A DNA stretch of 64,000 nt from an uncultured Eggerthellaceae bacterium. GTDB lineage: Bacteria; Actinomycetota; Coriobacteriia; Coriobacteriales; Eggerthellaceae. Below are positions 37,002 to 43,545 of this stretch, piece by piece. Position 1 is the first letter of the stretch. Each line of letters opens with the position of its first letter. Location: assembly GCA_947632575.1 (NCBI GenBank), contig CANRPV010000001.1, forward strand, positions 102 through 64,101, in the 5' to 3' direction. Below the pieces are notes generated by a model that made no database searches, was not told where the DNA came from, and saw nothing but the letters and a program-made list of their open reading frames with translations. Position numbers and translations under genes: made by a program.

Positions 37002-37733
37002 CTAGATGCCCAGCGCCTTCTTTAGTGCCGAAACTCTGCGGCGGGACACCGGGATTTTTTCGTCAACGCCATTGAGCGTAAGCACCAGCGTACCGCCGGG
37101 TATAGATTCTATTTCCTCTACGGTAGAGAGGTTTACAAGAAAACCGCGATGTACTCGGAAAAATCCGTGACCGTCGAGGCGTTTTTCCAGCTGAGCAAGG
37201 CTGACCGTGGAGAAATATCGATCGGTGTCAGTTTGCAGGTACGCATAGTCGTCACGTGCCATGACAAAACGGATCTTATCGATGCTGATGAGAATCTTTT
37301 TACCGCCCTTTTCCACGGGAAGCCGCTCCGAATGCTGGGCCTGAGCATGAAGCGCCACCTGCTCGCGCACGCGAGCCACGGCTTGAGCCAGACGCTCGGA
37401 CTCCACGGGCTTCACCAAATAATCGACGGCGTTTACGGAAAAAGCGTCTAGGGCATGTTCGCTATAGGCGGTTACGAAGACGACTGAAGGCGGATACTTT
37501 AGATGCTGGAGCGCATCGGCGAACTGCAAACCAGAAGCCTCAGGCATGTTGATGTCGAGGAAAATTACATCGCAAGGAAATTCCTTGAGTTTCTCGATCG
37601 CTTCACGGACGCTGGCAGCCTCGGCCACCACTTCGATCTGACCATGTTCGTCAAGAAGAAACCTAAGCTCTGATCGAGCAGGGGCTTCGTCGTCTACGAT
37701 AATGGCCTTGAGCACATTCGCCTCCAATATCAT
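37002..37733 (-). CDS. LytTR/AlgR-family response regulator (orphan, no adjacent kinase)
   Basis: ATG 37733 (MILEANVLKAIIVDDE), receiver domain plus C-terminal LytTR DNA-binding domain (FFRVHRGFLVNL). Confidence 0.85.
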   Translation of the reverse strand: MILEANVLKAIIVDDEAPARSELRFLLDEHGQIEVVAEAASVREAIEKLKEFPCDVIFLDINMPEASGLQFADALQHLKYPPSVVFVTAYSEHALDAFSVNAVDYLVKPVESERLAQAVARVREQVALHAQAQHSERLPVEKGGKKILISIDKIRFVMARDDYAYLQTDTDRYFSTVSLAQLEKRLDGHGFFRVHRGFLVNLSTVEEIESIPGGTLVLTLNGVDEKIPVSRRRVSALKKALGI

Positions 37734-37865
37734 TTCCTTTTCAATAGGGGCACAGCCTTGACGGATCGATCGTACTGCTCCTGTTATGTGAGTTGATCGA
37801 TCAGCGGAAATAATCAGCCACAACCCGTAATTATAGTACAAGCTGCCCTGTATTTATGTAGGTAT

Positions 37866-37930: not shown

Positions 37931-38263
37931 CTATTCGTCGGCAGTGGGCTGATCGCCGATTTTGCCATCGTGGTCGAGGTCTGTGTTGGTGAGCTCCTCG
38001 GCCTTGTTCTTTACGGTGTTGACCGCATCGGCAACCACAGGCTTTGCCTTCTCGACAGCAGCGGCTCCAGCGGCCTGGGCCTTGTTAAGGGCATCCTCGA
38101 CAACCGGCTTAGCGGCTTGAACGGCGGCAGCGCCAGCGTCCTTAGCCTTGTTGACCGCATCTTCTACGACAGGGGCAGCTTTCTCAACTGCTTGTCCGAT
38201 GGCGTCCTTTGCATTGCCGAGAGCTTCTCCAGCTTTTTTCGCGAGATCGTCGAAATCTGGCAT
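37931..38263 (-). CDS. Small Ala/Lys-rich protein with three roughly 22-aa tandem repeats
   Basis: ATG 38263 (MPDFDDLAKKAGEALG). Repeats are KAAPVVEDAVNKAKDAGAAAVQAA / KPVVEDALNKAQAAGAAAVEKA / KPVVADAVNTVKNKA, with an acidic tail. It resembles small actinobacterial stress or antitoxin-like helical proteins, but the family is uncertain. Confidence 0.6.
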   Translation of the reverse strand: MPDFDDLAKKAGEALGNAKDAIGQAVEKAAPVVEDAVNKAKDAGAAAVQAAKPVVEDALNKAQAAGAAAVEKAKPVVADAVNTVKNKAEELTNTDLDHDGKIGDQPTADE

Positions 38264-38374: not shown

Positions 38375-39217
38375 TCAGGAAACCAGACCAAGACGTTCGA
38401 GCTGGCGCGCATGTTCGTTACCAGGAGAAACTAAATAAAGACGAGTGGTTTCGATGGAGCTATGCCCTAAGACATCCGCCAGTTTGGCGATGTCATGGCA
38501 CTCGCCGTAGAAGGCCGTTGCGAAGAGGTGTCTGAGGTTATGGGGAAAGACTTTGGTGGATCTGACTTCCGCTCGGTCGCAAACCGCTTTCATCTCAGCC
38601 CAGATTTGATGCCTCGAGAGGCTTTTCCCATGTTTGGTGATGAAAATCTCTCCGACGGTGATGGCTTGACTGCTCGCATAATTGAGCAGCTTCTCTTGGA
38701 GCCGCGTGGGAAGCAGTATCACGCGGATCTTTCCCTTGAGAGCCACTTCTGCACGTCCCTTTCGGGCGGCGTCGACGGTGATGTATTTCAACTCGGACAC
38801 ACGAATTCCGGTGCTGCAAATGGTTTCCATGAGGAGCGCCAATCGTTCTCGCCCTTGAGAGCGAGCCACAGAAAGGAGCCGGGCATATTCACCTTTCTGC
38901 AAGTCTCGTGATTGGTCACGAAAGACCACTCGTTGAATCCGGAGAAAGCGCACGCGACATTCATCCCACTTCTTGTAACGGAAATAACCGTTCAAGGAGG
39001 AGATCATCGAATTGATTGTCGTCGGTGCGTAGTGCTGTTCTACAAGGTGTTTCTTCCATAGCAAGGCGATTTCCTTACTGATGGCGCGATGCCCAAGCCA
39101 GCGGGAAAAGGCTTGTAGATCCCGTCGGTACTTTTTCAGGGTCGCTTCGGTACGTTCTGCTTCAGCAAGGTAATCAAGGTAGAGCTCAATATCATTCGCG
39201 GTTATTGAACGCTTCAT
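38375..39217 (-). CDS. Tyrosine-type site-specific recombinase (phage-integrase family, Xer-like size)
   Basis: 280 aa. N-terminal SAM-like core-binding domain, catalytic region with GIRVSEL (Arg), HNLRHLFAT (His-x-x-Arg) and LGHSSIETTRLYL (His...Tyr). Confidence 0.9.
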   Translation of the reverse strand: MKRSITANDIELYLDYLAEAERTEATLKKYRRDLQAFSRWLGHRAISKEIALLWKKHLVEQHYAPTTINSMISSLNGYFRYKKWDECRVRFLRIQRVVFRDQSRDLQKGEYARLLSVARSQGRERLALLMETICSTGIRVSELKYITVDAARKGRAEVALKGKIRVILLPTRLQEKLLNYASSQAITVGEIFITKHGKSLSRHQIWAEMKAVCDRAEVRSTKVFPHNLRHLFATAFYGECHDIAKLADVLGHSSIETTRLYLVSPGNEHARQLERLGLVS

Positions 39218-39299: not shown

Positions 39300-39338
39300 T
39301 AAACAAAACAGGATTACGAGCGAGTCGTAATCCTGTTT
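39300..39338 (-). terminator. Strong rho-independent terminator downstream of the adhesin gene
   Basis: AAACAGGATTACGA-loop-TCGTAATCCTGTTT, a 14-bp stem. On the minus strand it is followed by TTTTGTTTAT. Confidence 0.75.
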
Positions 39339-39366: not shown

Positions 39367-42300
39367 CTAGGGGCTATGGGGTCTTAGGCGAATGAACGAA
39401 ATGAGAAGTGCGAGGGTAGAAGCCCCGGCAAGGCCTATAAGCAACATCACTCTTACAGGATCACCGGTCTGGGGGTTCGAAGGCGGCAGCTGTGGCTTCG
39501 CCATCTCTTCTTGAGAAGAAAGAGAAGGCACAAGCTGCTCTGGTTGAATGCTCTCACCACCAAGGGGAGGAGGAAGGTCTTCTGATTGGCCGGGCTGAGG
39601 CCCTGGATCGGGTCTGAAATCTGGTTTATGAGGAAGGGCGGGTGATTCTTTGAAAAGCACTCCATTGTTGCCCAACCATGACTCGATAGTGAAACTCTTC
39701 GTGAGTGGCGCAACTGAGAGAAAGGCATTCGTGGTAGAGAGACTCACGGTCTCAGCGGCCTGTTCAATCAGGTTTTCTTGATCTTTGGGGATAGCGTATT
39801 TGAACAGATCACCCGTTCTCAATCCAAGAGGGCGAACGGCGATGACGTAGTCTGAAGAAGCTTGCGACTGCGAATCAAGATCGAGCGTTTTTCCTTGAGA
39901 AGCTTGGTAGTAACAAAGACTGGCGTTCCAGTTGATCTCTCCGTTCGCGTTTTGGCTCAATGCGGGAGCCAACTCTCGTCCAAGTCGAGGGATCACCCGC
40001 TGAACCGCATACTCTTCATGCGGCGAATAGTAAGCCACCGCGAGGTAATAGGTCTTATCGGGATCGAGCTCTTCAATTCGTTGAACCGGACGGGCTATTT
40101 CGACTTCTTTACCAAGAAGGCCTTCGGCATCATTAAGGGGGTCATGGCTTTCGCGGAAAGAGGCTTCCTGGTAGAGAGGAAGATAGTGTTGGAACCGATA
40201 GAAGCGATTGGTGGGGGAGGGGCAAAAGCTCAGTGAGGCGTCACCAAATGACCAAGAGCCTCCGCGCATCCCCGTGGCTCTTCTGCCACTGTATTGAATG
40301 AGATTGATCGACTCCGCTTCATCCGATGGATAAAGCTCTTCCTCGCGGGAGGGCGTCTCCGGAGAGGTGGAGTAGTTCTCTTCAAGACCCATCGTGAAAG
40401 CCACTTGGAGAGGTTGAGAGTAGTCTTCTCTCACCGATGTCTTATAGCTGATAACCTTCTGCAGCCCGGTGTCATCAGGTGCGGAAAGATCGATAGAGGC
40501 GATCTGTAAAGGAAGCGCAGCGGCTGGGATGTTAAAGCAGAGCGTTTGATGGTTGAACCCGTCGCTTCCTCGCGTTGTTTCCGTATAGATTTCGATGCCT
40601 TCTAAAGGACGTGCAGGATCCTTTGCGTCCGACAGTTCTTCCTGTTGCTCTTGTGGTGATTGGACTTGATGTGATTCGTCTGAGTTAGTGACAGGTTGGT
40701 TCAGATAGAACCTATGCGTTTCAGCGTTGTCGAAGTAAGCAGGGTTGTGTAAGGAGTACGGTTTGGCCATTGGCGAGGGTGGTTCCAGCAGGTAATAGGA
40801 GCGAGTGCAATTGTCGCCAGCTGAAAGGTTTATTCGGGTTTCGTCCGGCTCTATCGTGTACGTGGTCCCGAAAAGGCGCAGCCCTTTGAAAGACTTGATC
40901 TCCATGTGATTTCCGAGAGGACAGCGAAAGGAAAGTGCATCATCGATATTGGAACCATTAGGTCCTTGTACGGGGCAAAACACCTCACTTGAGATCTGCG
41001 TGAGGATCGACTTAAGAATCGCATCGAAGTTTTCTGTCGTCGATTCGAAGAAATAATCCGCATAGCAGATGTTTTCTCTGACATCAGCCTTTGTTATCCC
41101 ATATGGATCCGAAGGAAGAAGTTGATTGAGCGTGCGGTTATAGGGTGATGGCTGGGATGCGACGGCGGCGCTTTCCCAGGGGTGATAACGTTTGAAATCC
41201 GGATTGTTGAAGTTAAAGCCTTCGCTATAGTGGACGGCTCCATCACTTTCGGACCAGCGCTGCCAAAGTTGGTAAGCCCGTTGGATGAAGTTGACCTGAT
41301 CCGTGTCGATCATGCAGCCGTCGGTGGTTTGGAATCCCGGAGTTATGAACACGGAGCCCGACCGTTTGTCTCTATCGGGATATTCGTAGAAGTAGGCTTT
41401 CTCTCCCTTGCCCTCATTTGCCAAGCTATCGACAAGGCCGATCGCTTTGCCACCAATCTGGAGTTTTGAGCTCTGGTCAGTGAAAAAGTGTTTAGGATCG
41501 AGCATGGGATACAAACGGCCAGCATAGGCAAACCGTGCCCAGTCATGATCATCTTGCTGGAAGAGGTCGAGACCGATCGTGAAAACTCGAGGCTTAACTT
41601 TTTTCGTAAAGCTTGGATCGATTTCGGCGGAATTGTAATTCTTTTCGATCGCCGCTTTCAGGTATGAGGCCGTCATCAGGGTTTCACTGATAATCGCGGG
41701 AGAGTCTTGGCCTTCACGAGAAAGCGGGGTGGTGAAATGTTGGGAATCGAGATCGTACCAACTTCCGTTGTCGAGCTGCTGTAAGAGTCGATTGCTCCCG
41801 CCGTCTGTCATGGCGAGAACCACAGGCTGTCTGGCGGTCAGAACTCCTTCAGTTAAACAAGTAACCTCAGTTTCGTCTGCAAGCAGCTTCATGCCTTGAT
41901 AAAGGCCAGATTGGAGGTTGGTGCTCGCTCCTGTGCAGAGGGCTTGATTCGTGTAGGGATAATTCGGAGGCCGATACTTAGCGGTGCTGTCGTTATAAAA
42001 ATGAACAGCTTTTGGCCGGTGAGTTTCATCTTGGTAGTCGATATCGAGAGTAAATTGGCCGGTCTCCTCATTTGGGTCGTAACGATAGGTATGTACCTTG
42101 AATGAGACCTGATCGTAGTGGTCGAGAGGAAGTAAGGTCTCAGCTTTCGATCCATACATGACCAGCGCGATTCGATTTTGAGGGTTAAGCGCCATGAGCG
42201 TCTTTATGGTGGTCTCAATGGTTTTAACCGCTACATCTATGCGACGCTCTACGTTTTGATCAGGGTTCCAAAGCTGATCTTCCGTATAAGTTCCAAAGTC

Positions 42301-42807
42301 ACCCTGGGCAGGTGGTGCAAGCCATTGGGGGTCAGTGACTTTTGCCATGGATACCGATGCATCCATGACGAGCACCAGATCTATAGGGTTGAAGCTGTAC
42401 CCGTTGACCTTTTGCGAAGCACCGAGTAAGGAGAACACCCCTAAAAATTCCTCGTCATAGGAGATATCCCACTGCTTCGTGGTCGTGGGTAGGCCCAGGG
42501 TGACTTTGGTTGAACTTGGTGGATTGGGATTAGCGAATAGGGAAAGATCTGACCAGACACGGCCCGCATAACGGCTTCCGTTTTCGTCGTTGAGGAGAGC
42601 TTCGGTATAGGATGTGTAGCTAGGCTCATCTGCGGTGCACTGGGATTTGAGGCCGACCGCCGTGGCGGCCATTGGGTGAGGAACGAGGAGGAATGCACCC
42701 AAGGCCGCCATCAGCAGTTTCTGCGCTATATTTTGCGACCGAGCGCTGAAACCCAAGTGCCTCTTCTTTTTTGAAGAGGCTTGTTGTTTGGCCTGAATAA
42801 GCGCCAT
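39367..42807 (-). CDS. Large cell-surface protein: signal peptide, VWA domain with MIDAS motif, C-terminal sortase-type sorting signal (NPQTG + TM + basic tail)
   Basis: Best start is ATG 42807, preceded by GGGAG. Signal peptide KLLMAALGAFLLVPHPMAATA. DLVLVMDASVSM contains the DxSxS MIDAS motif. The C-terminus is NPQTGDPVRVMLLIGLAGASTLALLISFIRLRPHSP. Sampled lines of this gene look lower in GC than neighbouring genes. Confidence 0.85.
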   Translation of the reverse strand: MALIQAKQQASSKKKRHLGFSARSQNIAQKLLMAALGAFLLVPHPMAATAVGLKSQCTADEPSYTSYTEALLNDENGSRYAGRVWSDLSLFANPNPPSSTKVTLGLPTTTKQWDISYDEEFLGVFSLLGASQKVNGYSFNPIDLVLVMDASVSMAKVTDPQWLAPPAQGDFGTYTEDQLWNPDQNVERRIDVAVKTIETTIKTLMALNPQNRIALVMYGSKAETLLPLDHYDQVSFKVHTYRYDPNEETGQFTLDIDYQDETHRPKAVHFYNDSTAKYRPPNYPYTNQALCTGASTNLQSGLYQGMKLLADETEVTCLTEGVLTARQPVVLAMTDGGSNRLLQQLDNGSWYDLDSQHFTTPLSREGQDSPAIISETLMTASYLKAAIEKNYNSAEIDPSFTKKVKPRVFTIGLDLFQQDDHDWARFAYAGRLYPMLDPKHFFTDQSSKLQIGGKAIGLVDSLANEGKGEKAYFYEYPDRDKRSGSVFITPGFQTTDGCMIDTDQVNFIQRAYQLWQRWSESDGAVHYSEGFNFNNPDFKRYHPWESAAVASQPSPYNRTLNQLLPSDPYGITKADVRENICYADYFFESTTENFDAILKSILTQISSEVFCPVQGPNGSNIDDALSFRCPLGNHMEIKSFKGLRLFGTTYTIEPDETRINLSAGDNCTRSYYLLEPPSPMAKPYSLHNPAYFDNAETHRFYLNQPVTNSDESHQVQSPQEQQEELSDAKDPARPLEGIEIYTETTRGSDGFNHQTLCFNIPAAALPLQIASIDLSAPDDTGLQKVISYKTSVREDYSQPLQVAFTMGLEENYSTSPETPSREEELYPSDEAESINLIQYSGRRATGMRGGSWSFGDASLSFCPSPTNRFYRFQHYLPLYQEASFRESHDPLNDAEGLLGKEVEIARPVQRIEELDPDKTYYLAVAYYSPHEEYAVQRVIPRLGRELAPALSQNANGEINWNASLCYYQASQGKTLDLDSQSQASSDYVIAVRPLGLRTGDLFKYAIPKDQENLIEQAAETVSLSTTNAFLSVAPLTKSFTIESWLGNNGVLFKESPALPHKPDFRPDPGPQPGQSEDLPPPLGGESIQPEQLVPSLSSQEEMAKPQLPPSNPQTGDPVRVMLLIGLAGASTLALLISFIRLRPHSP

Positions 42808-42850
42808 TTGTAACTCCCTAGTGCTTAAAAACCTTAGACCATCGAGACAG

Positions 42851-42870
42851 AATATTGATTTTGTTATGAG
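42851..42870. repeat. Left 20-bp inverted repeat (IR-L) of the putative invertible switch
   Basis: AATATTGATTTTGTTATGAG is the exact reverse complement of 43208-43227. Confidence 0.95.
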
Positions 42871-43207
42871 GGGCGGCCCATTTGATTTGAGTCTTTGAGA
42901 GGCGATCGCAAAAGCGAAATGAGCGTCCTTAAAGTACAAAAGCCTCCTTAAGGCCTGATAAAAATGTACTTAGAGGGCAAAATTTTGTACTTTAAGGGCA
43001 ATAAAAGCCCTTTTTGAGATCGATGTTTAAGAGTTGTGCTCAAATAGGGCGAGCAAAAACGTGCTTCACCTTCACAAGTGGTGGAGGGATAAAAACTCTT
43101 ACGGGTATTTTGTGAGATACGTTTACGAGTTTAATATATGAGTTAAACTCTCATTATTCATAGTAAGAGGAGTACGGGCTTCTGAAGTTGACGAATAAAG
43201 ATTTTGT

Positions 43208-43227
43208 CTCATAACAAAATCAATATT
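43208..43227. repeat. Right 20-bp inverted repeat (IR-R) of the putative invertible switch
   Basis: CTCATAACAAAATCAATATT. Confidence 0.95.
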
Positions 43228-43545
43228 TCGCGTAGAGCAAAAGCGCAATATCGCGTAGAGCAATAGCAAAATCCTCTTCTTTCCTCACCAAGCGACCCAT
43301 GTTTCAAGCCTTATAGATTCCTCGTTGAATGTCTCTAGACGTTCGCTTACGGAAGTCAAGTAACAATTCCCAAAAGATACGTAGTTCACTGAGCAATTAT
43401 TAACCAAATAGTACTAAGCTCAAAAAGCTAAGTAGTTTAGTCAGAGGACGGGGGACATCTCAGCCTGATTTGGACGGATTGGGGAATCCGGGTGATCGAG
43501 GTCGTCTTCTGATAAGGGTCAAAACGTTCCTAAGGAGGTGGGGGA

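Follow-up and report, generated by a model that had tools for sequence, protein, structure and literature searches.

Two perfect 20-bp inverted repeats bracket a short stretch of DNA directly upstream of a very large surface-protein gene in a member of the Eggerthellaceae, and a tyrosine recombinase is encoded on the other side of that gene. What is this pair of repeats? The locus lies in a 64,000-nucleotide stretch of DNA which was analysed as a whole and is referred to here as the window. The repeats are most probably the two recognition sites of the neighbouring recombinase, and the 337 bp between them an inversion switch of the adhesin gene. The host had been described as a high-GC Gram-positive organism, in agreement with its placement in the Eggerthellaceae: its NrdD protein shares 89% identity with the Adlercreutzia faecimuris protein, and those of the best 120 NrdD matches that carry a name are from Adlercreutzia, Eggerthellaceae or Coriobacteriia.

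The left repeat, IR-L (AATATTGATTTTGTTATGAG), is the exact reverse complement of IR-R (20/20 positions, 337 nt apart; Table 1). No third copy of the 20-mer is present in the window when three mismatches are allowed (shuffle expectation: 0.01). When the window was simulated 200 times under a first-order Markov model, perfect inverted repeats (arms 30-1500 nt apart) were never longer than 17 nt, a length attained in a single run. The enclosed segment has a G+C content of 39.5%, compared with 54.5% window-wide. ORFs wholly within it are all 35 aa or shorter with TTG starts, and the longest that merely overlaps it (48 aa, TTG start, 43123-43269) crosses the right edge. The initial annotation had placed a 20/20 repeat at exactly these positions, judged it improbable by chance, and described the interior as AT-rich, lacking a credible ORF and lacking a target-site duplication (flanks GACAG and TCGCG); each of these observations stands.

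Table 1. Features of the putative switch locus and its surroundings (window coordinates).
Feature	Position	Strand	Remarks
Tyrosine recombinase, 280 aa, SAM-like and catalytic domains	38375-39217	-	PF02899, PF00589
Intrinsic terminator between adhesin and recombinase genes	39306-39338	-	-21 kcal/mol, z = -3.9
Presumed regulated gene, 1146-aa secreted sortase-anchored (NPQTG) protein with VWA-like region	39367-42807	-	Starts 38 nt past site L
Recombinase site L, AACAAAATCAATATTCTGTC	42846-42865	-	29.6 bits; reads from inside the segment outwards
IR-L, perfect 20-bp arm	42851-42870		Centre and inner arm of site L plus five more bases
Putative invertible segment, 337 bp	42871-43207		39.5% G+C, no credible ORF
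Hairpin and repeat block	42927-43014		Terminator-like structures in both orientations, none decisive
Best internal promoter-like site, TTGTGA-16-TAATAT	43110-43136	+	8/12 matches; weak, inferred
Weak extra half-site adjoining site R	43189-43208	-	8.0 bits
IR-R, perfect 20-bp arm	43208-43227		Exact repeat match
Recombinase site R, AACAAAATCAATATTTCGCG	43213-43232	+	23.4 bits
External promoter-like site, TTGAGC-16-AATAAT	43396-43423	-	9/12 matches; consensus match only

Within the hairpin and repeat block, CCTTAAAGTACAAAA pairs perfectly with TTTTGTACTTTAAGG over a 15-bp stem, GTACTTnAGGGCAA is present in two direct copies with 21 bp spacing, and a GGGC-N7-GCCC hairpin is followed by T5 on the plus strand. 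Weak terminator-like hairpins are found in both orientations of the segment and none is strong. Apart from the sites themselves, the interior shows no similarity to related switches (described below), and an Rfam scan of the window matched nothing other than three tRNA genes. The motif GTACTT(T)A(A/G)GG occurs three times in the segment (42927-43001): two direct copies begin at 42967 and 42988, exactly 21 bp apart, and an inverted copy (42927-42941) pairs with the second of these to make the 15-bp stem. Sites of LytTR-type regulators typically have a 21-bp period, and the gene of an orphan LytTR response regulator is located in the same window at 37002-37841.

The presumed target is the adhesin gene. 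Its longest reading frame opens within the segment, at TTG 42939. The credible start codon is instead ATG 42807, in view of its GGGAG ribosome-binding site and the signal-peptide-like N-terminus encoded after it; 43 nt separate this ATG from IR-L. The initial annotation chose the same ATG, with a protein length (1147 aa) and a distance (44 bp) that are corrected here to 1146 aa and 43 nt. Its description of a VWA/sortase-signal protein holds for the C-terminus, where NPQTG, a hydrophobic stretch and a basic tail make up a sortase sorting signal, and is in keeping with a DxSxS motif (DASVS); the Pfam VWA_2 match is only weak (E-value: 9e-4, under the gathering score). The relatives of the adhesin, surface proteins that contain VWA, are distant (24-34% identity), and several are encoded in sortase or pilus-like loci. 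Three loci of such distant homologues, with sortase or pilus-like contexts, contain neither paired sites nor a recombinase. A PDB sequence search with the adhesin matched nothing.

The adhesin coding region contains a further inverted repeat, CCAAAGTCACCCTGGGC, with a 17/17 match between 42293-42309 and 42493-42509 (183 nt apart). It falls at about aa 100-171, at the beginning of the VWA-like region, and is unlike the recombinase site. A perfect repeat of 17 nt was reached in just 1/200 simulations, and inverting the segment in silico places three in-frame stop codons in the adhesin gene. This repeat pair could be an intragenic inverton or a coincidence.

On the far side of the segment, the plus-strand operon cydAB begins 313 nt beyond the right-hand site, such that the switch region is the divergent intergenic region between the adhesin gene and cydAB. 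On the near side, the adhesin and recombinase genes are separated by a terminator, as had been claimed, and it is a strong one (Table 1). A separate promoter for the recombinase, also claimed, was looked for and not found. Directly downstream of the recombinase gene, the minus strand encodes a 100-aa Ala-rich repeat protein (KPVVEDA-NKA--AGAAAV type, 37960-38262) with no family match; its gene has its own 10/12 promoter match (38332-38303) and a terminator (37901-37872). GC3 is 0.57 in the recombinase gene and 0.54 in the adhesin gene, compared with 0.60-0.73 in most neighbouring genes, a difference that would fit a foreign origin of these two genes.

The 280-aa protein was correctly annotated as a tyrosine recombinase. 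Both Pfam domains are present, as are all six catalytic residues (R139, K163, H226, R229, H252 and Y261), which are invariant in a 28-sequence alignment and align with the XerD active site, placing the protein among the tyrosine site-specific recombinases of XerC/XerD-like fold. It belongs, at full length, to a family of more than 8000 proteins. A search of 5.8 billion clustered proteins found no close relative; thousands of gut-metagenome proteins of about 281 aa are 59-64% identical to it along the whole length (E-values around 1e-110), and the window protein is the most divergent member of the family. Named relatives include proteins of Agathobaculum, Dysosmobacter and Pusillibacter. The nearest relatives are all from Clostridia, whereas the host is an actinobacterium. 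A 64% identical homologue from Agathobaculum, WP_459687117, carries the NCBI name "tyrosine-type DNA invertase PsrA".

The surroundings of the recombinase gene were surveyed in 85 loci, 80 of which were fetched from metagenomes using the alignment of 28 family members. An inverted-repeat pair with a span of 239-335 bp begins within about 15 nt of the recombinase stop codon in 67 loci, and the sites have the consensus GACARAAT-N4-ATTYTGTC. Their centre varies between loci and is the same within each locus, which is what a tyrosine recombinase's crossover region should look like. About 76 of the 85 loci have a plus-strand site of at least 14 bits 3-62 nt past the end of the recombinase match (the first site at most 30 nt past it in all loci but one), and about 60 have an inverted partner on the minus strand 236-334 nt past it. 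Elsewhere in the 661 kb of locus DNA there are almost no matches of at least 14 bits. In Agathobaculum, the repeat ACAAAATCAACATTTCG begins one base past the recombinase stop codon, and its partner follows 235 nt further on. Of the loci without a repeat pair, eight are metagenome contigs that stop 15-255 bp past the recombinase stop codon, within the expected switch (L008, L016, L033, L036, L046, L047, L058 and L077), which is the effect that mixed orientations in a sample would have on the assembly graph.

A strong promoter, TTGnnn-17-TGnTATAAT, is present in 46/50 related segments scored. It reads outward, with 45-77 nt between the end of its -10 box and one segment end; in 11 assemblies it is directed at the downstream gene, in 35 at the recombinase gene. 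The regulated gene begins a few tens of nt past the distal site and is often that of a giant surface protein, so the proposed arrangement of a switch in front of a surface-protein gene has counterparts in the family. Among the downstream genes are those of SLH-domain proteins of 1309-1646 aa with InlB-type repeats and of a MucBP protein; the neighbour annotated in the isolate Pusillibacter faecalis MM59 is an S-layer homology protein of 1499 aa.

Related segments have been assembled in both orientations. Four near-identical assembly pairs (L005/L006, L015/L020, L068/L069 and L067/L078) have flanks that are at least 98.7% identical and an inner segment that is at least 98.7% identical only as the reverse complement. 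One comparison, at the Agathobaculum locus, involves L005 (an NCBI isolate genome), L006 (an ENA metagenome contig) and L007 (a Logan contig): the inner 235 bp of L006 is 100% identical, reverse-complemented, to that of L005 and L007, which share one orientation, and the flanks of all three are 100% identical without reversal. This is an inversion caught in public assemblies. The initial annotation had called for related genomes to be compared at the same locus; the comparison made here finds homologous segments in both states.

Two further arrangements were seen among the surveyed loci. The first gene past the switch encodes a protein of about 290 aa in ten loci (L015, L019, L027, L030, L031, L052, L060, L072, L085 and L087). 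In L015, the only representative searched against Pfam, its similarity to tyrosine recombinases is confined to their N-terminal SAM-like domain; this could be a second recombinase-like protein, itself phase-variable. L012, L031, L039, L041, L053-L056 and L094 have a third site, 34-54 bp away from a member of the pair and oriented the same way. These loci could undergo two alternative inversions, slightly unequal in length.

A site matrix was built from 91 sites of homologous loci, leaving the window sites out of training. Training sites score a median of 23.2 bits and a maximum of 31.3. Sites L and R both reach at least this median, at 29.6 and 23.4 bits, and the next best match in the 64 kb scores 12.1 bits. 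The claim of an inverton is thereby strengthened, as the repeats match the site of the adjacent recombinase's own family and homologous segments are found flipped. Each perfect 20-bp repeat consists of the crossover centre, one arm and five additional bases. The centre, AAT-CAAT-ATT, is the same in both sites; their outer arms are unlike each other (CTGTC and TCGCG), yet both fit the consensus. The Agathobaculum site and the right-hand repeat with its flank have the same base at 16 of 17 positions.

Site R is surrounded by degenerate copies. The half-site next to it forms with site R the palindrome GATTTTGT-CTCATA-ACAAAATC, and outside site R is a 23-bp tandem near-duplicate (43215-43237 and 43238-43260, 78% identical). 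Site L has neither a flanking half-site nor a tandem near-duplicate. With such copies around site R only, the direction of switching could be biased.

How well does the window locus fit the clostridial family? The recombinases are related (59-64% identity), two inverted 20-bp sites with identical centres are present, and a large surface-protein gene begins just past one of them, the adhesin ATG being 38 nt from site L. The layout differs. Gene order in the window is switch-adhesin-recombinase: the recombinase gene starts 3.6 kb downstream of the site pair, with the adhesin gene in between, and no site follows the recombinase stop codon (38375) in the window. This layout was not found in any of the 85 related loci within 6 kb either side. 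The site-to-site span is 387 bp, as opposed to 239-335 bp in relatives, and the TTGnnn-17-TGnTATAAT promoter is absent from the window segment. The centre reads from inside to outside (29.6 bits, as opposed to 14.6 bits when reversed), which relative to the segment is the reverse of the outside-to-inside polarity of every related locus examined. This polarity raised the suspicion of a true partner site elsewhere, a possibility rejected because no further site of at least 13 bits exists in the 64 kb. The reversed polarity is given no mechanistic weight here, since polarity relative to the segment is immaterial for simple synapsis. Both orientations are seen for the family in the four assembly pairs, and the window organism is represented in the collections searched by one assembly, in a single contig, with one orientation of the segment. 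Look-ups of the exact proteins (the window's recombinase, CydA and the database copy P0001) located no indexed contig, and the protein clusters contain one member each.

The best internal promoter-like site (TTGTGA-16-TAATAT) has no TG extension and ends 95 nt from the end of the segment, a position analogous to that of the strong promoter in related loci. As assembled, it points out through IR-R, away from the adhesin gene, and the assembled orientation is for this reason probably OFF. Once inverted, it would be about 130 nt upstream of ATG 42807. The external promoter-like site (TTGAGC-16-AATAAT) reads through the switch towards the adhesin gene.

The proposed model for the switch is as follows. 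The recombinase encoded 3.6 kb away would pair the two inverted core sites, each made up of two arms of roughly 8 bp (GACARAAT / ATTYTGTC-like) around a short asymmetric centre. Strand exchange within the identical AAT-CAAT-ATT centre would invert the 337-bp segment, and this inversion would turn the sortase-anchored surface protein on or off in individual cells. The most likely means is an internal promoter that would face the adhesin gene in one orientation and point away from it in the other. From the clostridial loci it is predicted, by analogy, that the segment inverts in the window organism too. The adhesin gene is the predicted target because it starts 38 nt past site L, with the same geometry as in related loci, and inversion should switch it for the same reason. 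The promoter mechanism and the ON/OFF assignment are likewise predictions, drawn from the position and direction of promoter-like sites.

Several other explanations were weighed. The segment might invert in the manner of the cwpV switch, in which an orientation-dependent terminator lies downstream of a fixed promoter. Here the fixed promoter would be the external site (43423-43396, minus strand), with a terminator in the 5' leader in one orientation. The best consensus promoter of the intergenic region is indeed outside the repeats and directed towards the adhesin gene, no strong promoter lies inside the segment, and the segment is rich in hairpins followed by T-runs. However, the terminator-like structures are similarly weak in both orientations, the 9/12 promoter match is at shuffle level (1 found, 1.3 expected) and an internal promoter is found in nearly all related switches scored (46/50), so a cwpV-like mechanism is considered rather unlikely. 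Less likely again is an inactive relic, in which the site pair came with a transferred or rearranged recombinase module and neither inverts nor regulates anything now. A relic would suit the non-canonical architecture (no stop-codon site, reversed polarity, no family-type promoter), a recombinase that is the most divergent of its family, and recombinase and adhesin genes whose GC3 is below that of nearby housekeeping genes. Decay should nevertheless have removed features that are still in place: the 20 bp remain perfectly identical, both sites score at or above the family median, and the recombinase frame is intact with all its catalytic residues. It is also quite improbable, though conceivable, that one switch serves two divergent units, the adhesin gene one way and cydAB the other (assembled) way, through a rewired clostridial module. 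No terminator was detected in the 313 nt between the switch and cydAB. If such a two-way switch existed, it would couple the adhesion state to the oxygen-respiration state, and the reversed site polarity and the lost family promoter would be parts of the rewiring.

Explanations that involve no inversion switch at all fare worse. Perfect terminal inverted repeats, an AT-rich non-coding interior and a typical size are what a MITE or insertion-sequence remnant would display. The initial annotation had named dispersed copies as the sign of such an element, and these are missing: there is no second copy in the window, the 20-mer gives only four single matches, all in unrelated genomes, in GTDB (one genome for each of 185,579 species), and a scan of a metagenome collection did not find the paired repeats. 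With no target-site duplication (GACAG vs TCGCG), and with the repeat identified as the recognition site of the adjacent recombinase family, the MITE reading is rejected as extremely improbable. A palindrome that arose by chance or has a structural role (operator pair, RNA structure) and takes no part in recombination is just as hard to credit. Regulatory palindromes are common in divergent intergenic regions such as that between the adhesin gene and cydAB, but arms 337 nt apart make neither an operator nor a simple hairpin, and the specific match to the family site would be left unexplained. Chance itself is rejected on the shuffle expectation of 0.01 and on the simulations, 0/200 of which reached 20 bp. 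An inversion switch of the adhesin gene, operated by the neighbouring recombinase, remains the preferred reading.

Phase-variable surface proteins shape colonisation, immune evasion and phage sensitivity in gut bacteria. To our knowledge, the invertons characterised so far are nearly all from Bacteroidota and Enterobacteria, with a few from Firmicutes. Eggerthellaceae are studied for drug and diet metabolism, and no report of such a switch in this family was found in the literature. The locus would supply Eggerthellaceae with a concrete phase-variation switch in which the recombinase, the sites and the target gene are all named. The comparison also defines a large recombinase-inverton family by a 20-bp site matrix, a position at the stop codon and an internal extended -10 promoter. 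This definition could be used without read data for annotating thousands of loci in gut Clostridia.

Inversion switches operated by a tyrosine recombinase in front of surface-structure genes are classical, as exemplified by fimS and the Bacteroides switches. E. coli fimS resembles the switch proposed for the window: a promoter-bearing segment of about 300 bp with short inverted repeats is inverted by tyrosine recombinases encoded beside it (FimB/FimE), which turns a surface adhesion organelle on or off. FimB/FimE-type invertases are about 200 aa in length, the fimS repeats are 9 bp, and the recombinases are encoded upstream of the switch. The window recombinase is not of this type, scoring 27-29 bits with NF007370/NF007371 against cut-offs of 221-222. 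In Clostridioides difficile, RecV acts on several genomic switches, including the cwpV switch (Cdi1) (PMC5903667). As proposed for the window, this tyrosine recombinase of a Gram-positive gut bacterium flips a short repeat-bounded element in the 5' region of a large cell-wall protein gene (PMC5903667); with regard to the cwpV mechanism, the window offers a 9/12 external promoter-like site at chance level and weak hairpins in both orientations. PsrA of Streptococcus pneumoniae, whose name has been given to the Agathobaculum homologue, is a tyrosine invertase that acts on 15-bp inverted repeats to produce hsdS inversions at the cod locus (PMC7096588, PMC4948785). The pneumococcal enzyme rearranges the coding segments of genes for type I restriction specificity, whereas the window segment is non-coding and its repeats are intergenic. 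Compared by gene context, the hsdS setting is absent from the window, where the neighbours of the recombinase gene encode the adhesin, the Ala-rich protein and the LytTR regulator.

The clostridial recombinase-adjacent invertons share with the window locus the recombinase family, the 20-bp site, a short non-coding AT-rich segment and a large cell-surface gene just past one site. This family is probably the "inverton group 139", linked to tyrosine "invertase group 35", of the 2025 hCom2 PhaseFinderDC survey of a defined gut community. One switch in group 139, from Intestinimonas (255 bp, 14-bp repeats), was oriented differently in mucin-attached and in supernatant cultures (PMC11892184). The clostridial switches are positioned at the recombinase stop codon, whereas the window switch is upstream of its cargo gene; they also have the opposite polarity, a shorter span and a TGnTATAAT promoter, all unlike the window. 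Their cargo is an SLH or MucBP protein, in contrast to the sortase-anchored VWA-like protein of the Eggerthellaceae host. The window locus is thus a known kind of switch in an unusual layout and an unusual, actinobacterial host.
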